Positions 10,501-27,227 of a DNA stretch of 32,067 nt are shown here, piece after piece. Positions within the stretch are counted from its first letter, which is position 1. Every line of letters begins with the position of its first letter. Both the position numbers and the translations under genes were made by a program. This stretch comes from a virus. Lineage: Duplodnaviria; Caudoviricetes. The notes beneath the pieces were generated by a model. The model had not been told where the DNA came from. It did no database searches and worked only from the letters and a program-made list of their open reading frames with translations. Location: the IMG/VR virus record IMGVR_UViG_3300037419_000602, positions 1 to 32,067 of that record; one strand, written 5' to 3'.

Positions 10501-10715
10501 GCACGCCGTACGACCTTCGCGCGGAACGAGTGGACGGAACGCACTTTGACGTCTCGCTCGGTGGGCACTCGTTGGCCGACGCGAAGGTCCATTTCGAACG
10601 TGAGTTCCCGCACCTCGCCCCGTTTCATTGGCGCGGTGCCGTCGCCTTCTGTGAGGGGCGACGTCCCGCCGAGCCATTCCCATCTCGTCGCCGTCGAGTG
10701 TCCCACATGTTGTGA
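10497..10715 (+). CDS. Small hypothetical protein
   Basis: SD GGAGG and GTGA overlap. Confidence 0.55.
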   Translation: MSTPYDLRAERVDGTHFDVSLGGHSLADAKVHFEREFPHLAPFHWRGAVAFCEGRRPAEPFPSRRRRVSHML

Positions 10716-10765
10716 GTTGCGGACAGAGCATTTCCGCCACACATTCCAGTCGTCGCATTCTCTCA

Positions 10766-10780
10766 ACGCCGTGAGGGCGT
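10766..10780 (+). promoter_or_regulatory. Variant GUGA-loop hairpin upstream of the Ig protein
   Basis: ACGCC-GTGAG-GGCGT preceded by a pyrimidine tract, resembling the elements at 19530 and 20586. Confidence 0.45.
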
Positions 10781-10806
10781 CGTGTCCTGCCTTTCCTTCT
10801 CGCCTC

Positions 10807-12723
10807 GTGCCTAAGCGCGGCCATCAGCCGCGCGGATTGCTTCCCGGCGATCCCGGCCAATTTCTCGTTACCGTCTCCTCAACGCTCGTCGACCAAGGCT
10901 CGACGGTCGAAGCATTCGCGCAGTACGCCACCTCCGAGGGCTCGCCCGTCGCTCGCTCTGGCCTCACGGTCACCTGGGGCAAAACGGGCAGTGGTGGCAC
11001 CTTCAACAACGCGACGAGTACGACCGACGTCGCCGGGGTCGCCAAAGTCCAATTCACGGTCGGCACGGTCGTTGGCGCCACGTACGCCATCACCGCGGCG
11101 GCAAGCGGCGGCATCGCGGGGACGAGTCCAACGATCACCGTCAGCGCGGACGACGTTCCTGACTCGATCGTCTTGACGCCCGCGACACTCAGCCTCGTTG
11201 CGGGCGGCACATCAACGATCACCGCCACGCTCAAGAACAAGATTGGCGGCACGATCGCCGGCGCCACGCCGACCGACTGGATTACGAGCGATCCGACCAT
11301 CGCAACGGTTGCCAACGGGCTCGTCACCGCCGTCGCTCCTGGTTCCGTCGCCATCACGGCACGCTACGGCGCGATCCTCAGCAACGCCGTCAGCCTCACG
11401 GTCACCACCAACATCGCGCCGGCCTCGATCACCCTCGTCGCCATCTCGGTCCCGCTCTCGGTCGGAACCGTCCAGATGACCGCCAACGTCAAAAACGGCA
11501 CGGGCGATCCAGTCCCTGGCGTCACGCCGACCGGCTGGACGAGCTCTGACCCCACCGTCGCCTCCATCAATGCGACGTCGGGACTCCTCACGGTCCTCAA
11601 AGTCGGGTCAACGAATATCCAGGCATCGCTTGGGTCGATTCTCTCGAACACCGTCGCGGTCACGGTCACTCAGATCACCACGAGCAGTGCCGTGCTCGCG
11701 CTCGAGGGACCGACCATTCCCTCGTCGGCGATGGCGGCGCTCGGTCTCAGCTATTACGAAACCCTCTTTTCGGTCAATGCTGAGCAGCAGTGGACCGATT
11801 TCAACAAAGCGTGGGACGCGGGGAACACGATCTCCGTCTACGAACGTCCCGCCACGTTCTGGGTCTGGGCGCTTCGCACCGGGGATCAGAAATGGTTCAC
11901 TCGGGCCGACGCGATGCTCAAGGATTACCGCGACCGGTTCCTCCTCGCCAACGCGGGCAACGATCCCGCGCAGGTCAATCCCTCGGCGCACTTCAGTCAA
12001 GCCGAAAGCTTGTACCTGCATTGGAAGATCACGGGCGACACGCTGAGCCGGGACTGCGCCGTCAGCATCGCCACGCACGCCATCGCCTACACGCTGGGCT
12101 ATCTCACCAACCTCGCTGGCCCGGTCGACGCGCGCATCCAGGCCCGCGTCCTCGTTGCCTTTTACATCGGGGTCCTCATCAAGGGCGAGAACTACCAGCC
12201 GAGCGATCAGAATCCCACGACGTACGGGCAATACCTCGATCAGTGCATCACCGACGTCCTCGGCACGATGAACGCCGATGGCTACGCCGAATTCGCGTCG
12301 ACCTGCGGCGGAAGTCTCAACTACATGTGCGGCATGCTGGCCGATATTCTCACCCGGATCTACGACCAGCGCCCCGGCACGTACAACGCGACCATTCTCA
12401 CGAAGATGACTGCGCTCGGTACCTACCTCTGGAACACACAGTGGCGTGGTGGCGGCTCGGATGCCTCGTTCAACTACAACTCGGTGTTCTGCGCCGGCAC
12501 CGGCTCCGCGACCTCCGCGCCCGACGAAAACGGACTGATCGCACCCCTCTTTGGCTGGTTGTACAAAACGACCGCCGATGCGGCGTGGAAGACGAAGGGT
12601 GACCAAATCCTGGCGGGGATGCAGCAGGCCGGCGGGATCTATCTCTACCGCCAGTTCTCGGAACTGTTCGACTCGAGTTACCGCTACTTGGGTTACGCGC
12701 ACCCCGACCACTTGCTCACCTGA
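10807..12723 (+). CDS. Ig-like repeat protein (Big_1/Big_2) with C-terminal predicted alpha/alpha-toroid domain; start uncertain (10771 or 10807)
   Basis: Three Thr/Val-rich Ig-like domains (STTDVAGVAKVQFTVG; W.TSDPTIATVA.NGLVTAVAPGSVAITA; WTSSDPTVASINA.SGLLTVLKVGSTNI). These are followed by ~340 aa of aromatic helical repeats (LRTGDQKWFTRA, KITGDTLSRD, YKTTADAAWKTKG). Confidence 0.8.
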   Translation: MPKRGHQPRGLLPGDPGQFLVTVSSTLVDQGSTVEAFAQYATSEGSPVARSGLTVTWGKTGSGGTFNNATSTTDVAGVAKVQFTVGTVVGATYAITAAASGGIAGTSPTITVSADDVPDSIVLTPATLSLVAGGTSTITATLKNKIGGTIAGATPTDWITSDPTIATVANGLVTAVAPGSVAITARYGAILSNAVSLTVTTNIAPASITLVAISVPLSVGTVQMTANVKNGTGDPVPGVTPTGWTSSDPTVASINATSGLLTVLKVGSTNIQASLGSILSNTVAVTVTQITTSSAVLALEGPTIPSSAMAALGLSYYETLFSVNAEQQWTDFNKAWDAGNTISVYERPATFWVWALRTGDQKWFTRADAMLKDYRDRFLLANAGNDPAQVNPSAHFSQAESLYLHWKITGDTLSRDCAVSIATHAIAYTLGYLTNLAGPVDARIQARVLVAFYIGVLIKGENYQPSDQNPTTYGQYLDQCITDVLGTMNADGYAEFASTCGGSLNYMCGMLADILTRIYDQRPGTYNATILTKMTALGTYLWNTQWRGGGSDASFNYNSVFCAGTGSATSAPDENGLIAPLFGWLYKTTADAAWKTKGDQILAGMQQAGGIYLYRQFSELFDSSYRYLGYAHPDHLLT

Positions 12724-15083: not shown

Positions 15084-15228
15084 CTCGACCGCTCAGCCGC
15101 CGATTTTAAAATTCTGTCAAGGGGCAAAAGAAGGGATTTTTCCGGACGTTATCGTATCCCAGGAGATTCCAGCAGATTCCAGGACGTGTCACGCCATTCC
15201 CAGCCCAAAGGGGCGTTTCAAAAAGCGG

Positions 15229-15245
15229 TGTTATCATGCCGCCCA
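15229..15245 (+). promoter_or_regulatory. Extended -10 promoter, possibly giving a leaderless HNH mRNA
   Basis: TG-T-TATCAT at 15229-15237, with ATG 15245 following after 7 nt; no SD; AT-rich upstream gap. Confidence 0.55.
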
Positions 15246-15562
15246 TGGCATACCGAGACATGTTTCGCGATCCCCGCTGGCAACGTCGGCGGCTAGAGAT
15301 CCTTCAACGCGATGACTGGCGATGTCGTTGCTGCGGCGAGGGCGGGAAGGAGCTTCACGTTCATCATCGGCGCTATCGCTCAGGAGAACCGCCGTGGAAC
15401 TACACAGACGAAGAACTCATCACGCTCTGCACCGCCTGCCACAACACCGTGGAAGAGATCACCTTCAACTGTCGCGCGAACCTGCCACTTCTCAACCGCG
15501 ACCAGCTCACCGCGGTTTATGACATTGTGAAACAGGCGATAGAAGACCCGGTTCCGTTTTGA
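15245..15562 (+). CDS. HNH endonuclease
   Basis: MAY...RDPRWQRRRLEILQRD.WRCRCCG...LHVHH..Y...LITLC..CH. Confidence 0.9.
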   Translation: MAYRDMFRDPRWQRRRLEILQRDDWRCRCCGEGGKELHVHHRRYRSGEPPWNYTDEELITLCTACHNTVEEITFNCRANLPLLNRDQLTAVYDIVKQAIEDPVPF

Positions 15563-15724
15563 CGCCGGAAACTGACCGGCGCGCGCGCCGACCGGCGCGG
15601 CCGATCGCGCTATTTCGTTTACTGCACTTTGTGGTGGGTGTTGTGACTTGAGAGTTGCGGAATCCGCACCGTTGTCACAGATTGTGGACGCGCCAACTCG
15701 GCGGACTCTCCTGCCCATCTGTCG

Positions 15725-16234
15725 TTGACCGTCTCCTTTCGTCGCGAATCGCTCACCGACGCGCTCTGGTCGGAGATGCAACCACTGCTCGCTGCCCACT
15801 GGCGCGAGATCGCGCATTTCCAGGACATCCCGCTCGAGCCTGACCGCGAGTTCTATCGCGCCGCTGAAAGGGCCGATGCGCTGCGCGTGTTCACGGCCTA
15901 CACAACGACGGGCTTTGCGGCGGTCGACCATCTCGTCGGCTACGCCGCCTACTTCGTGAAGCACAACCCGCACTACGCGAGTTCGCTCCAAGCCGTGCAA
16001 GACGTGGTCTACCTCGACCCAAGTGTCCGGGGCGGCACCGGGTATCGCTTCATCGCATGGTGTGACGACCAGTTGCGCGCCGAGGGCGTTCAGGTCGTGA
16101 TTCATCACGTCAAGGCCGCACACAACTGGGGCAAGGTGCTCGAGCGACAGGGCTACAAAGCGGTCGACGTCCTCTACGCCAAACGACTCGATGGACCACG
16201 GTCCATCGTTCGTCGCGACGAGGCCGCGGACTGA
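15725..16234 (+). CDS. GNAT-family acetyltransferase
   Basis: LVGY...DVVYLDPSVRGGTGYRFI (acetyl-CoA-binding motif A)...LERQGY. TTG start is uncertain. Confidence 0.8.
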   Translation: MTVSFRRESLTDALWSEMQPLLAAHWREIAHFQDIPLEPDREFYRAAERADALRVFTAYTTTGFAAVDHLVGYAAYFVKHNPHYASSLQAVQDVVYLDPSVRGGTGYRFIAWCDDQLRAEGVQVVIHHVKAAHNWGKVLERQGYKAVDVLYAKRLDGPRSIVRRDEAAD

Positions 16235-21633: not shown

Positions 21634-22296
21634 ATGGCTCTCGTTACTCACGACGCAACCAGTATTGCGAACTTGGCGCTCCGACACATTGGCATCGGGA
21701 AACCGATCGCGAGTCTGTCGGAGCAGACCGAGAACGCCATCGCCTGCGCGGCTTTCTACCAGCAGACCAAAGAAGAAATCCTCCGCGAATTCCCCTGGCC
21801 GTTCGCATGGACGTACGCCCCGCTCGACCTCGTCGATGGCTCAGCGGACATCGCGACCGCGCAAGACTTTCAGTACGCGTACCGCCTGCCGGCGGACGCC
21901 ATTCGGGTGCATCGCATCCTCGGAGACACGCGACAAGCGGGGACCGAAAGTCGTATCCCGTTTTCGTTGGGCTCGGACGCGACGGGCGGGTTGCTCTACA
22001 CCGATTCGGCGCCGATCGCGGCGTCCACGTCGCAGCTGCAACAGCCCCAACTCGAGTACACGCGCAACGTCGACGAGTCCGACCTGCCGTCCGATGTGGC
22101 GCAGTGCATCGCGCTCAAACTCGCATTCTATCTGGCCCCAGCCCTGACCGGTGGCGACCCAAATAAGCTCGGTGCGCGCGCATATCAACTGCTCTATGGG
22201 CCAGGTGGTCAGTTCGATCGCGCGGCCGGGGCGGCGGCGCGGGAACAACAATTCGATCCAGAGCCAGAGTCGGAGTTCATCACGACCCGGCTATGA
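21634..22296 (+). CDS. Tail tubular protein A / adaptor (T7 gp11-like)
   Basis: SIANLAL.HIG...I.SL.E, L.EFPWPFA, FQYAY.LPAD.IR and IALKLA..LAP.LT. Confidence 0.88.
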   Translation: MALVTHDATSIANLALRHIGIGKPIASLSEQTENAIACAAFYQQTKEEILREFPWPFAWTYAPLDLVDGSADIATAQDFQYAYRLPADAIRVHRILGDTRQAGTESRIPFSLGSDATGGLLYTDSAPIAASTSQLQQPQLEYTRNVDESDLPSDVAQCIALKLAFYLAPALTGGDPNKLGARAYQLLYGPGGQFDRAAGAAAREQQFDPEPESEFITTRL

Positions 22297-24554
22297 GCAA
22301 TCTTGCCATCCGAAGCTTTGCCAGCGGGGAACTCGCCCCAGCCCTCTACGCGCGGACCGACCTTGCGCGCTATGAGAACGGGCTTCGGACCTGTCGCAAC
22401 TACGTCATCATGCGACAGGGCGGCGTCACGAAACGGCCGGGGACGCAGTTCATTGCCCGCGTTAAGGATTCGACCAAGCGGGTTCGGCTTGTGCCGTTCG
22501 TGTTCAATGTCCGCCAAGCGTTCGCGCTCGAGTTCGGGGACCGCTACGTCCGATTCTATCAGAACGCGGGCCGTGTGCTCGACGACGATGCGACGACCAT
22601 TCTCGAAGTCGCCTCACCGTATCTCGAAGCGGATCTGGCATCGTTGCAGTACGTGCAGGCGGGGGACGTGCTCACGATCGTGCATCCGTCGTATCCGCCG
22701 TACGAGCTCCAGCGCCATTCGAATACGGAGTGGACGCTCACGCCCATCGTCTTCGGCACGACCGTTCCCACGCCGACGTTCACCTCGATCATCGGTGGCG
22801 ATCCAGGCACCTCGCGGACCGTGGCGTATGTCGTCACGGGAGTGGACGCCAACGGGGACGAATCGCTGGCGAGTGACCCAATCACGCACGGCTTCCCGCC
22901 AAAGGACCCGCTCTACCCGATCGGACTCACGGCGACATTCACCGGCGATGTGCTGACCGCGAACGTCTATCGTCAAGACAACGAGTCTGGCGTGTACGGC
23001 TTCATCTTCTCCGCGATCGTGGAGGCGGGCACGATCACGGTCCTGGATTACGGGACGATCCCCGACCTCACGCTCCAACCACCGATCGACAAAAGCTCAA
23101 CGCTGTTCAATTCGGCGGACAACTATCCGTCTGTTGTCGCCTACTATCAGCAACGCCTCATCTTCGCGAACACGAACACGCACCCCGATACGGTGTGGTG
23201 CTCGCGCACGGCGTTGTATCACAACTTCAACACGTCGGTGATCGTCCAGGATGACGACGCGATCACGTTCCGACTCGTGTCGGACGAAGTCGACGCGATC
23301 CGCCATGTTCTCAATCTCGGGCGACTCATCATCGGAACGGAAGGCGTCGACTGGATTGTGGAAGGCGATGGGAACGGAACGCTGACGCCGATCGCGGTCA
23401 ACTCCCGCGTGGGCTCCTATGACGGCATGGCGGCGCTCAAGCCCATCAAGACCGGCGCCCACATGCTGTTCGTGCAAGCGATGGGGGCCGCCGTTCGAGA
23501 ACTCCAATCGGACGTGCAGTTCGGAACGTACTCGCTCGTCGGCGGCGATGTCACGGTCTACTCGAGTCACCTCGTCGACGGGTTCGCGATCGTCGACTGG
23601 GCGTTCCAGCAGGAGCCGTTGCACATCGTCTGGGCGGTCCGGTCGGACGGCGTGCTGCTCTCGCTCACGTACATCCCCGACCAGCAAGTCCTCGGCTGGG
23701 CGCGACACGACACGGACGGCTACGTCGAAAACGTGTGTGTCATTCCCGAAGGCTCGACGCACTGGCTCTACCTCGTGGTGCGCCGATTCGTCGACGGCTC
23801 CTATCGCCGGTATGTCGAACGCATGGCGACCACGAACGTGACGCCGGTCTTCGCGACGCCGGAAGCGGCGGCGCAAGGCGGGATCTTCACGCCGCCGCCG
23901 CCGCCCGGTGCCCCGCCGCCGAGTGGGAGTCCCGTGGTTTCGCCGACGAGTCCCAGCACGACGGACGTGAGCGCCACCGGTGCCACGGCGAATTGGGTGT
24001 TTGGGAATCCGATCGCGCCGACGCGCGTCGAGATCCGGCCCGTCACCCAGCCGCCGAGCGAATGGAGTGTGATTACCATCAACGGCGGTCTACAGTCACG
24101 CGAGTTCACCGGGCTGACGCCAACCACGCGCTACGAATGGCGCGTCGCCCATGTGCTGGGCGCACTCCTCTCCGACTATCTCGGTCCCTCGGCCGCAACC
24201 ACGTTCATCACGACCGCGGCCACGCAGCTCTTGGCTGCTCCGCCCTCGTCGCCGGCAATCTCGATTGCGTTCTCGGACGTTGGGTTCACGGACATCACCG
24301 TCTCGTGGGCCGCCGCGGTGGCTGGACAACTGAGTGTCGTGGCGATCGCTGGACCGTTGACGACCCCGCCCGACGAGGCGGACTACGCCGCCTTCTCGTA
24401 TGCGGCCGGTGTCTCGTCGGCGGTCCAGCGGATCACAGCGTCCGGGCTGTATTGGGTTCGGGTCCGGTACGAGCCGGTCGACCCAGCGTCCGTCTTCTCG
24501 CCGTCCGCATGGGCGGGCCCGACACAGGCGATCGTCACGGTCTTCGCGCCCTAA
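22293..24554 (+). CDS. Tail tubular protein B / nozzle, N-terminal part, fused to a proline linker and two FN3-like domains
   Basis: SFASGELAP.LY.R.DL..Y..G...CRN....QGG...RPGT.F, YPS.V.YYQQRL.FA and W.VRSDG.L..LTY...QQV.GWARH.T...RRYVERM. These are followed by PPPPPGAPPPSG and an FN3 signature (TGLTPTTRYEWRV). Confidence 0.9.
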   Translation: MSNLAIRSFASGELAPALYARTDLARYENGLRTCRNYVIMRQGGVTKRPGTQFIARVKDSTKRVRLVPFVFNVRQAFALEFGDRYVRFYQNAGRVLDDDATTILEVASPYLEADLASLQYVQAGDVLTIVHPSYPPYELQRHSNTEWTLTPIVFGTTVPTPTFTSIIGGDPGTSRTVAYVVTGVDANGDESLASDPITHGFPPKDPLYPIGLTATFTGDVLTANVYRQDNESGVYGFIFSAIVEAGTITVLDYGTIPDLTLQPPIDKSSTLFNSADNYPSVVAYYQQRLIFANTNTHPDTVWCSRTALYHNFNTSVIVQDDDAITFRLVSDEVDAIRHVLNLGRLIIGTEGVDWIVEGDGNGTLTPIAVNSRVGSYDGMAALKPIKTGAHMLFVQAMGAAVRELQSDVQFGTYSLVGGDVTVYSSHLVDGFAIVDWAFQQEPLHIVWAVRSDGVLLSLTYIPDQQVLGWARHDTDGYVENVCVIPEGSTHWLYLVVRRFVDGSYRRYVERMATTNVTPVFATPEAAAQGGIFTPPPPPGAPPPSGSPVVSPTSPSTTDVSATGATANWVFGNPIAPTRVEIRPVTQPPSEWSVITINGGLQSREFTGLTPTTRYEWRVAHVLGALLSDYLGPSAATTFITTAATQLLAAPPSSPAISIAFSDVGFTDITVSWAAAVAGQLSVVAIAGPLTTPPDEADYAAFSYAAGVSSAVQRITASGLYWVRVRYEPVDPASVFSPSAWAGPTQAIVTVFAP

Positions 24555-24572
24555 CGGAGAAAGAGAGCAACC

Positions 24573-25658
24573 ATGACACTGCCGGTCATTTACAACGCGG
24601 ACGATTTTTCGTGGGGCGCTGCGGGGTCATTCCGCACCGCCGCGTTCGAGACGTTCTACTATGGCGGACATAGCGACAACTCGATCGGCCAGAGCGGGCG
24701 CGGCACGCCGCAAGGCTACAGCATTATCGGAAGCCCGAACAACGGGTGGCTCGGCTGGGCGCTGATCAACCTCGCGACGGGCGCCGCGCTCACCCCGTCG
24801 CGCGTCGGGCAGTTCTTCGGGCACAACATGCGCGGGATCGCGAACGGCGCGCCGAATCTCATTTTCTGCAAGTGGCTCGAGGCGCAGGGTGGTCCGACGC
24901 ACGTCCAACTGATCACCGACGCCGCCAACCACATCGTGGCGATGAACGGCAGCGGCGCCATCATCGGCACGAGTACCTTCGTGTATCCAGGGAGTGCGAG
25001 CGACGGCTCTGGACCCACCCCGGTTATCGAGGCGATTTGTACGGTCCATAGCTCGACGGGGAGTGTGCAGGTGAAAGTGGACGACGTTCTCGTGTTAGAT
25101 CTCTCGAATGTCAATACGCGAAACGGCGGGACCGGGGTGGTCGGCGCGGTCGAGATCCACAACGAAGCGACGCGCATCAGTTCCGAGTGGGTCATTCACG
25201 ACGGGTCTGCGTGGCTCGGCGCCGACAAACGCGTAGGCTGTTTCAATGCCGCCACGGCGGGCACCTACACGACGGGCACACCGACCGGCGCCGCGACTGC
25301 GGTCGCGTGTGTCGATGATGGGTTTCGGGAAGCCGAAAGTGATACGGTGCTCGCAATCGACGGAACGAGCCTACCCAAGAAGGCCACGTTCGGCGTGGAC
25401 GCGTTGCCCGCGAACGCGACGGGGGTCGTGTGTGTCATCCCGCAAGTCGTGGTCAAAAAGAGCGACGCGGGCACGAACACCGGGAAAGTCGCGCTCAAGT
25501 CAGGCGCGACGCTCACCCTCGATGCGAGTGCGCGGCTCATTCCCGATGCCTTTACCTCGCTGCGCCAGGGCCCGCACCATACGAATCCGAACACGACGGC
25601 GGCGTGGACGATCCTTGAAGTCAACGCGGCTCAGCCTGGGTTCGAGCGCGATTCATGA
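24573..25658 (+). CDS. Putative tail/receptor-binding protein, beta-rich and possibly ConA/LamG-like
   Basis: Gly/Thr/Ala-rich; GSVQVKVDDVLVL..SNVNT and C-terminal NPNT.AAWT..EVNAAQPG resemble phage minor tail proteins. SD-like GGAG/GAGAG upstream. Confidence 0.65.
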   Translation: MTLPVIYNADDFSWGAAGSFRTAAFETFYYGGHSDNSIGQSGRGTPQGYSIIGSPNNGWLGWALINLATGAALTPSRVGQFFGHNMRGIANGAPNLIFCKWLEAQGGPTHVQLITDAANHIVAMNGSGAIIGTSTFVYPGSASDGSGPTPVIEAICTVHSSTGSVQVKVDDVLVLDLSNVNTRNGGTGVVGAVEIHNEATRISSEWVIHDGSAWLGADKRVGCFNAATAGTYTTGTPTGAATAVACVDDGFREAESDTVLAIDGTSLPKKATFGVDALPANATGVVCVIPQVVVKKSDAGTNTGKVALKSGATLTLDASARLIPDAFTSLRQGPHHTNPNTTAAWTILEVNAAQPGFERDS

Positions 25659-26677
25659 CGGACTCGCTCGTCACGCGCGTTGGGCAGATCGTCGTTTACG
25701 AGACGGCGATCACGGACGCGTGGCTCACACGGGTTGGTCAGATCGTCGTCTACGCCACCGCACCGCAACCCGACAATCCTGGGGGCGGGACGAGTGGCGC
25801 GGGCGCGCCGTTTCGGCTGCCGGCGCGTGGTGGTGCGGTCTATCTCGACTCCTATCTCGAGTACGACGGCCGGCACGCCGGCGCGGACGACGGGTTATTC
25901 CCCGGCGCGTACCTCACGCTCTCGGATGGGTCGACGTGGGCACCCGGCGAAGAATTCACGCTGACCGCGTCGAAGGATGTGTTCACGGCGGACGACGTCG
26001 GGAACCTCATCCTGGTGCATGCCAACAGTCCGACAGATTTGACGGTCGTGCGATTGACGATCACGGCGTACACGTCCGCGACGGAGGTCACCGTCACGCC
26101 AAACGTGGCGGTCCCCGCGGGGATGCGCGAGACGGCGATGCTCATTTGGGACAAAGCGGTCGACGTGGTCGCGGGGCTCGATCATCTCGAGGCGAAGGCG
26201 GTCGGGATTCTCGCGGACGATCATGTCGTCGGAAGTCCGAACAACGCGCGGATCGTGCTCCGAACTGTCACAGACGGCGCGGTCGATCTCGGCGATTTCT
26301 ACAGTCACATCTATGTCGGCCTGCCGTATCTCGCCGACCTGGAAACGCTGGACGTCGACAACGCGTCAGGTTCGACACTCAAGGCCACGCGGATGGATGT
26401 CACGAAGGTCGGACTCCACGTCTACAAATCGCGGTCAGTATGGGTCGGGAACAGACGGCCACCGAACGACGAGACTGATCCGCTCGCCGACTTGGAAGAA
26501 ATGCCGAAGCCCGCCGAGGTGGATTACGAGATCCTTCGCGACGAATACGAGGACGTGAACATCAAAGGGCAATGGAACTCGAACGGACGGGTCTTCATTC
26601 GGTCGGTCGACCCGGTGCCGTCAACGGTGCTCGCCGCGATTCCGCAGGGCCATCTTCCGCCAGTGGGGAGTGTGTAG
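25655..26677 (+). CDS. Tail tubular protein B / nozzle, C-terminal part, with a foreign N-terminal repeat
   Basis: YLDS.LEYDG, AGLDHLE.K.V.ILAD, VGLPY.ADLETL and FIRS.DPVP.TVLA.IP are hallmark C-terminal motifs of BPP-1-type nozzles. The N-terminus carries TRVGQIVVY twice. Confidence 0.8.
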   Translation: MTDSLVTRVGQIVVYETAITDAWLTRVGQIVVYATAPQPDNPGGGTSGAGAPFRLPARGGAVYLDSYLEYDGRHAGADDGLFPGAYLTLSDGSTWAPGEEFTLTASKDVFTADDVGNLILVHANSPTDLTVVRLTITAYTSATEVTVTPNVAVPAGMRETAMLIWDKAVDVVAGLDHLEAKAVGILADDHVVGSPNNARIVLRTVTDGAVDLGDFYSHIYVGLPYLADLETLDVDNASGSTLKATRMDVTKVGLHVYKSRSVWVGNRRPPNDETDPLADLEEMPKPAEVDYEILRDEYEDVNIKGQWNSNGRVFIRSVDPVPSTVLAAIPQGHLPPVGSV

Positions 26678-27227
26678 CATGGGCATGACAGCCGCCATCC
26701 TCACCGCCGTCAATACTGGACTCTCGTACTCGAGCCAGCGGAACGCCGCGAGTGCCGCCGATACGCAAGGGAAATTCGAGGCGGGGATTCTTCGCCAGAA
26801 CGCGGACTTCTCCGACCAGCAAGCCGCCGACGCGGTCGCGCGTGGGCAGATAGACGAAGGCCGGCAACGGCTCGACACGAAGCAACGACTCGGCGCGTCG
26901 AAAGCCGCACTCGCGGCGCAGGGTGTGGACGTGGGCTACGGCTCCGCGCTCGACGTGCAGTCCAGTGAAGCGCAGCTGGGGGAACTCGACGCGCTGACGA
27001 TCCGCAACAGCGCGGCGCGGGAAGCGTGGGGCTATAAGGTCCAAGGGCTCGGGTATCGGCAACAGGCGAAGCTCGCGGAGCTCGGCGGGATCAATCAAGG
27101 GGCGGCACTGCGATCGAATGCGACGTCGACGCTCCTGACGGGCGCGGTCAACACGTACGGGCTCTACTCGTCGGCGCGACAGACCAAGAAGGATTTGCGG
27201 GGCTCGCAGTATAAGGCGGGGGGCTGA
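26670..27227 (+). CDS. Internal virion/ejection protein (T7 gp14-like)
   Basis: MC start, Ala/Gln-rich, A.DAVARG..D, AALAAQGVDV..GSALD and DALTIR.SAAREAWG. Confidence 0.85.
   Translation: MCSMGMTAAILTAVNTGLSYSSQRNAASAADTQGKFEAGILRQNADFSDQQAADAVARGQIDEGRQRLDTKQRLGASKAALAAQGVDVGYGSALDVQSSEAQLGELDALTIRNSAAREAWGYKVQGLGYRQQAKLAELGGINQGAALRSNATSTLLTGAVNTYGLYSSARQTKKDLRGSQYKAGG

Follow-up and report, generated by a model that had tools for sequence, protein, structure and literature searches.

A podophage nozzle gene split in two around a lectin-fold tail gene, with a leader predicted to hold the lectin-fold protein by strand donation

Gene organisation of the split nozzle region

The window analysed here is the whole 32,067-base contig of IMG/VR virus record IMGVR_UViG_3300037419_000602 (Duplodnaviria; Caudoviricetes), from a podophage of the epsilon15/BPP-1/Carin-1 type, and the subject is its tail nozzle gene, which is split in two around another tail gene. 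Three intact open reading frames (ORFs) follow one another on the + strand: 22293–24554 (753 amino acids, aa), termed the N-half; 24573–25658 (361 aa), the middle protein or bead; and 25655–26677 (340 aa), the C-half, whose N-terminal leader is termed the rope. The first and second ORF are separated by a gap of 18 nucleotides (nt), and the second and third overlap by 4 nt (ATGA), in agreement with an earlier sequence-only reading of the window, which had called the frames intact and tightly spaced or coupled. The features of the three ORFs are as follows (pLDDT, predicted local distance difference test; TM, template-modelling score; E, expect value).

22293–23840, + strand: nozzle N-half core (residues 1–516), with N-terminal platform strands, beta-propeller and tip; PHROG 376 and 8CK1_A homology, domain names inferred from T7 gp12
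23841–23942, + strand: conserved PVFATPEE-type segment and poly-proline linker; from sequence, present in 15 relatives
23943–24161, + strand: FN3-like domain 1; Pfam fn3 at residues 551–623, E 8e-4; FN3con structures, E 1e-5 with the single sequence and 9e-14 with the profile
24210–24554, + strand: FN3/Ig-like domain 2, up to and including the N-half stop codon; ESM Atlas features 0.91–0.92 to Ig_J/fn3-type clusters, TM 0.62–0.74 to Atlas models
24573–25232, + strand: bead N-terminal ConA/LamG-type lectin-fold domain (about residues 1–220); AlphaFold2 pLDDT 92
25206–25658, + strand: bead C-terminal jelly-roll domain (residues 212–361), predicted acceptor of the rope strand; model pLDDT 93
25655–25753, + strand: rope leader of the C-half, with two TRVGQIVVY repeats (25673–25699 and 25727–25753); from sequence
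25754–25822, + strand: Gly/Pro linker of the C-half; from sequence, Pro-rich in relatives
25823–26677, + strand: core of the nozzle C-half, beginning at ARGG and comprising fibre dock and platform; homology to PHROG 376 541–707 and 8CK1_A 577–823

The RRYVERM motif extends to 23825, and YLDSYLEYDG begins at 25841, so that the nozzle motifs do stop and resume two ORFs further on, as had been read from the sequence. PHROG 376 is matched at positions 5–536 by the first ORF (E 8e-148) and at 541–707 by the third (E 3e-27). On the Carin-1 nozzle (8CK1_A) the first ORF aligns to residues 15–155 and 325–565 (E 2.5e-98) and the third to 577–823 (E 3e-29), with 11 residues (566–576) between the two aligned parts and no overlap. 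This was the check proposed in the sequence-only reading, and the coverage, 15–565 against 577–823, is complementary; 25655–26677 does align to the nozzle C-terminus, and the N-half is therefore not a complete nozzle, the third ORF being its missing end. The first ORF carries the N-terminal platform, propeller and tip and the third the C-terminal fibre-dock and platform of an epsilon15/Carin-1-type nozzle (PHROG 376, PF25675), at the usual position between adaptor and ejection genes. The two nozzle ORFs stand 1.98 kb apart and do not form the single polypeptide of the PHROG 376/PF25675 nozzle. Neither the 340-aa C-half nor the bead protein had a Pfam match. The complementary homology supports the earlier suggestion of a putative two-chain nozzle with new termini.

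Conservation and authenticity of the split

Both nozzle parts were present in 80 of the 85 related loci examined, some of which are one contig present in two collections; the 5 loci in which the N-half was not matched were left out of the count. The two parts lay in one ORF in 76 of the 80, in line with the claim that both motifs normally share one polypeptide, and were 2.1–3.2 kb apart with a window-like layout in three (L002, L003 and L004), which are also the three closest loci at 56–62% identity. L096 is a fourth related locus with the three-gene split layout. L076, the remaining one of the 80, was excluded as a split, its frame break lying over 286 nt on a 1.2-kb contig. A protein search with the C-half gave 30 matches, among them 19 further C-halves that stand alone behind a new leader, the contigs measuring up to 47 kb. 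Among the best 120 of 974 N-half relatives, 103 contain the C core and 2 are truncated, while the best-scoring 15 are without the C core and carry a new tail. When viral contigs were scanned with single-protein patterns of the bead and of the C-half, no relative was found.

A quick maximum-likelihood tree was calculated for the propeller region from 71 rows, namely the window and L004, 15 proteins of split type, and whole nozzles taken partly from the next-best proteins and partly from 24 loci picked by hand; two loci enter as their proteins, so that no row is counted twice. All 17 split rows fall on one branch (Shimodaira–Hasegawa-like approximate likelihood ratio test, SH-aLRT, 99), nested among whole nozzles, and the nearest relatives outside this clade (P0046, P0048, P0049, P0050 and P0058) are single chains.

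The window is an uncultured 32-kb contig, and no listed contig spans the whole region, as would be expected if the arrangement were an assembly artefact or a recent disabling insertion. Against this, the layout recurs in four loci from other samples, and contigs from runs X2, X3 and X5 are identical to the window across 23840, 24554/24573 and 25841; the junction between bead stop and C-half start is bridged, among the listed pieces, only by X1, a possible source of the window. The GC content at third codon positions (GC3) of the inserted parts (0.79–0.82) also equals that of core genes (0.74–0.83). Misassembly, named in the sequence-only reading as a ground for abandoning the split, is ruled out by the recurring layout and the exact contig matches, and the chance that artefact or disabling insertion explains the locus is negligible. 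The split is real, old and conserved in one clade.

One covalent nozzle might nevertheless be restored, whether by splicing, ribosomal bypass or readthrough or by protein ligation, the insert then being made as a separate product. New conserved motifs border the cut in all split members, a PVFATPEE-type end and an AR[GR]G start, and one contig of run X3 joins 23900 to 25863, both of which would suit such a restoration. That joint rests, however, on 21 letters in one contig whose loose ends are unrelated, and it does not keep the reading frame; it was rejected together with a joint of 22242 to 26738 in the same run, likewise of 21 letters. Frames and gaps at both ORF junctions vary among the five split loci, a pattern that speaks against readthrough or frameshifting as a conserved mechanism. 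The N-half extensions are folded domains retained at 42–53% identity among relatives, the Pfam matches of the window include no intein family, and an Rfam scan of the window gave no family at the gathering score, that is, no known intron or other RNA. Restoration of a single chain is therefore considered very improbable, and separate chains are preferred.

Two further loci have unusual nozzle C-termini. In L080 (145–1572) a repeat-rich beta ORF adjoins a stand-alone 224-aa nozzle C-terminal ORF, with the N part off the contig; this is possibly another independent nozzle split, or a stop error. In L081 (44–882, on a 1.2-kb contig) two tandem ORFs each end like a nozzle C-terminus.

The middle protein

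The N-terminal domain of the bead resembles 8q28_A with a VIA Z of 17.3 and a root-mean-square deviation of 3.0 over 192 aligned residues, and has the ConA-like beta-sandwich. The ConA/LamG fold is common to lectins, lyases and non-binders. The C-terminal domain resembles carbohydrate-binding modules only moderately, with Z reaching 7.0 at most. At an E threshold of 0.001 the bead family numbers 1,140 clusters, and homologues are predicted in the tails of many phages; the unannotated PHROG 2448 is matched by 118 of the 139 members that were aligned. The window protein has no Pfam or PHROG match, and only 4 stray Pfam matches were obtained in the 139 family members. No solved homologue was found by sequence, the best match having E 0.027. 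The family profile matches all 4 distinct related split loci and 0 whole-nozzle loci (L005–L086 and L098–L100; flanks of 8–10 kb at most), and in all 5 split loci, the window included, the bead gene immediately precedes the rope.

The rope leader and its predicted docking

TRVGQIVVY occurs at C-half residues 7–15 and 25–33, with a period of 18, and is followed by the Gly/Pro linker. A matrix made from 19 leaders found 2–3 units, 17–18 residues apart, in 17 of the 19, a circular result in that these leaders are the training set. On independent DNA, 8 bead-gene loci from unrelated phages were compared with 60 whole-nozzle control stretches, and tandem units appeared at 2 of the former and 0 of the latter. 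The two positive loci are those of Cp1R7A-A1, where the repeats form a 103-aa ORF, and S20, where they lie within a tail assembly gene. Strand repeats that look similar by eye follow the bead genes of Enc34, Delta and Pam4 and were missed by the matrix.

A complex of two beads and the C-half leader (residues 1–42) was modelled alongside three controls. The complex scored 0.88 (runs 0.88, 0.89 and 0.83) and the best of the controls 0.00; the mark used is reached by 116 of 157 solved complexes and by 2 of 215 mismatched pairs, a calibration only roughly valid for this job. Contact agreement between runs was at least 62%, with a partner pLDDT of at least 49. In the best run, rope residues 6–15 lie antiparallel along bead residues 285–294 and touch the last strand (355–357), the interface in the bead comprising residues 281–302 and 355–357, and the modelled rope strand reads as completing the bead sandwich. 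As no solved bead homologue was found by sequence, the score is less likely to echo a structure already solved. The proposal of the sequence-only reading that the leader docks the middle protein is thus supported as a prediction.

In a relative of 563 aa (P0176), N-terminal rope-like repeats and a full bead domain (207–563) are combined in a single chain, which could chain onto itself.

Alternatively, the nozzle might have two chains while the repeats pair mutually or with another virion protein and the lectin protein docks elsewhere. Support for bead–repeat binding comes from the model, one bead relative (L089) is fused to another domain, and 6 of the 8 bead loci are without a matrix match, all of which would fit such an arrangement. 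The clear separation of the complex from its controls, the strand-in-groove geometry of the model, the constant place of the bead gene immediately upstream of the rope and the single chain of P0176 speak against it, and it is regarded as unlikely, though the foremost competitor to docking of the bead on the rope.

The N-half extension

The first of the appended domains has a Pfam fn3 score under the curated cut-off, and the clade profile matches FN3 structures at E values down to 9e-14. The second is weaker, and 'FN3/Ig-like' is the safe label for it. The sequence-only reading had counted two FN3 domains here; the first stands on its profile match, and the second is retained in this broader form. 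Among the N-half relatives with a new tail, 14 of 15 have the FN3-like pair and one (P0040) has an Ig-like domain and a long beta-rich domain. The appended domains thus vary within the split clade, which bears out the swapping part of the earlier claim of a modular platform.

In L004 (3417–6773) and P0040 the FN3 pair is replaced by an Ig-like domain and a 500-aa beta-rich domain. The 'beta-helix' label given to the L004 tail comes from reading the sequence by eye, and no family matched it; a depolymerase fused to the nozzle is possible for both. In P0144, a whole nozzle of 908 aa, a CBM_4_9 domain is inserted a few residues before the split point, so this region tolerates additions.

Genomic setting

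The gene series of the window comprises terminase, portal (PF12236), capsid (PF20911), a Bbp16-like cement protein, adaptor (PHROG 394), the split-nozzle region and ejection genes (T7 gp14-like and larger ones). The region is bounded by two genes.

21634–22296, + strand: adaptor (tail tubular protein A type), upstream of the nozzle; PHROG 394, E 2e-30
26670–27227, + strand: first ejection protein (T7 gp14-like), downstream boundary; PF24072, E 5e-6, and PHROG 418, E 9e-32

The contig ends shortly past the ejection genes, and further tail genes may therefore be missing from the window. Eleven public sequencing runs contain part of the split region, every one labelled soil or rhizosphere, and 7 of the 11 contain half or more of its words; no RNA dataset is among the listed runs. 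A 725-aa ORF at 10546–12723 combines three domains of Ig-like type (Big_1, Big_2) with a C-terminal domain that is helical; it sits upstream of the terminase, away from the tail genes, and translation probably begins further in than the listed TTG. In L096 an Ig-repeat gene (15144–15812) lies between the first and second ejection genes.

Proposed mechanism

Taken together, the homology and the models make it probable that the split nozzle chains reassemble into one subunit and that each rope repeat takes one lectin bead as a beta-strand donor. Both halves would most likely be made as separate, translationally coupled chains and would rebuild one nozzle subunit by sheet complementation. The new N-terminus of the C-half would display 2–3 donor strands, each likely holding one bead, and the new C-terminus of the N-half would display FN3-like or other domains. 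With a hexameric nozzle and two repeats, up to 12 beads would be carried here, together with 6 FN3 pairs per virion. The cut would lie on the outer face, near the boundary of propeller and fibre dock. In the accessible text of PMC6702177, the fibre dock of T7 gp12 comes after the propeller, is exposed on the outside and connects to the platform; this layout and Carin-1 residues 565/577 make the position likely. As to origin, a bead-plus-rope cassette may have been inserted in such a way that its rope was joined to the 3' portion of the nozzle gene. The role of the module is likely adhesion to surface glycans. Further fibre-like genes, judged by eye, lie downstream in L002 and L096, and the bead module may therefore be accessory; the host-range platform proposed in the sequence-only reading stays a candidate role.

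Several points weigh against this mechanism. What is known here of the two-chain nozzle with beads comes from genes and predicted structures. The matrix missed 6 of the 8 bead loci and 2 of the 19 leaders. The complex job differs from its calibration (own alignments, three chains), the partner fold is uncertain in one run, and the interface lists only repeat 1 with bead copy 1. One split-clade C-half of 506 aa, P0010, lacks a rope and instead begins with a globular leader some 215 aa long; it had no Pfam or bead-profile match. The tree was a quick one with hand-picked rows, and most of its split labels rest on the missing C core, without genomic context.

If the mechanism is right, a concrete docking mechanism would be offered for a very large unannotated tail-protein family of sipho-, podo- and jumbo phages. 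The split point would mark a nozzle site at which a chain break and extra domains are tolerated, a point relevant to the way in which short-tailed phages acquire adhesion modules. The result also bears on the annotation of the C-half and the bead, which Pfam leaves unmatched.

Comparison with known systems

The Carin-1 nozzle (PDB 8CK1), those of epsilon15, phiV10 and the BPP-1 group (PHROG 376), and T7 gp12 are single polypeptides, whereas this clade has two chains; 8CK1_A and PHROG 376 are direct homologues with the same position relative to adaptor and ejection genes. Two-chain nozzles have been solved elsewhere, and the view of the sequence-only reading that a split nozzle was undescribed has to be given up. 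As far as the accessible parts of PMC13730344 go, cryo-electron microscopy of the Pseudomonas podophage A1002 (Kochitakasuvirus) shows a nozzle-base gp42 and a nozzle-rope gp39 that complement each other, with 11 fibre dimers of gp40/gp41 held on a 300-A rope by beta-sheet augmentation. The A1002 genus has the same gene order as the window: in its member KPP25, genes of 398, 171, 147 and 620 aa follow one another, the 147-aa ORF006 being identical to PDB 44NX_B. PhiXacm4-11, a Xanthomonas phage, has a solved two-chain nozzle gp30:gp31, described as a circular permutation in the accessible part of bioRxiv 10.64898/2026.02.16.706137. It is likewise a heterodimeric nozzle with extra outward beta-sandwich domains; going by that description, it differs in that, from the numbering, no gene lies between the halves, and neither rope nor bead is mentioned there. 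Searches of the openly accessible literature turned up no account of this clade, nor of a nozzle rope that carries lectin beads.

Beads on a rope are described for the Bas63 collar/whisker in the accessible part of PMC12609058, and GP4 (rope plus Fiber-1) and VP1 are cited there and in PMC13730344. In these accounts, as predicted here, the bead has an incomplete beta-sandwich, which is filled in by the extended peptide that carries it. They differ in having small dimers with an N-terminal helix on a collar or a separate rope, against an all-beta lectin bead and a rope on the nozzle. The GP4/A1002/Bas63 bead has 140–170 aa and a dimerising N-terminal helix; the bead here has 361 aa and two beta domains, with no N-terminal helix in the docking-domain model. 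Fold searches with its C-terminal domain listed no GP4, Bas63, A1002 or JBD30 chain in libraries to April 2026, a shared fold still being possible. JBD30 gp47/gp48 (PMC11445458) and Goslar DUF7941 (10.64898/2026.04.21.720040) were tried as leads and set aside, both having, in the parts of these sources that are accessible, a different arrangement and no link found. Small ORFs in L096 (17716–18102) and L088 (5505–5951) resemble by eye an A1002/GP4-type bead, in genomes that also have the lectin bead; judging from these sequences, two bead systems may coexist in them.

The PHROG 2448/6368 lectin beads of siphophages and jumbo phages (Cp1R7A-A1, S20, Enc34, Delta and Pam4) are encoded by homologous genes followed by similar strand repeats. 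The repeats stand there on a separate ORF or on other tail proteins, and here on a nozzle half.

Set beside A1002, as far as its accessible account allows, this clade shares two complementary nozzle chains, one or more fibre genes between them and an N-terminal rope on the C-half, as well as beads held by beta-augmentation, predicted here for repeat 1 only. A1002 has dimers of 147/171-aa proteins and no N-half extension, whereas this clade has 2–3 repeats, a single 330–400-aa two-domain lectin-fold bead with one bead per repeat predicted, and FN3-like or Ig and beta-rich domains on the N-half. The common gene order and the rope on the C-half could be taken to mean that both descend from one ancestral split. 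The split clade nests, however, among whole epsilon15/Carin-1-type nozzles, its closest outside relatives being single-chain; bead size and secondary structure differ; and the KPP25 equivalents of gp39, gp42 and gp40 gave profile-comparison probabilities of 0.35, 0.68 and 0.30%, so that by hhalign the halves and the bead stay below 1% and no descent from A1002-type parts was found. Common ancestry of the two splits is accordingly given very little credence. The A1002 design is likely not a one-off, a second podophage lineage having the same gene order with different parts. A wider reading, offered tentatively and held at slightly under even chances, is that nozzles have been split repeatedly and independently by mobile bead-rope cassettes, here with beads from the large lectin family of 1,140 clusters, each bead held by one donor strand. 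The repeats, 2 or 3 in each subunit, would then set the number of beads, the freed C-terminus of the other half would carry an exchangeable domain of adhesin or depolymerase-like kind, and a single break would thereby provide two independent display sites on the DNA gate. With no detectable sequence link to A1002-type parts and another bead family, the split nozzle of this clade likely works like that of A1002 and is not a member of its lineage by descent, its origin being likely independent.

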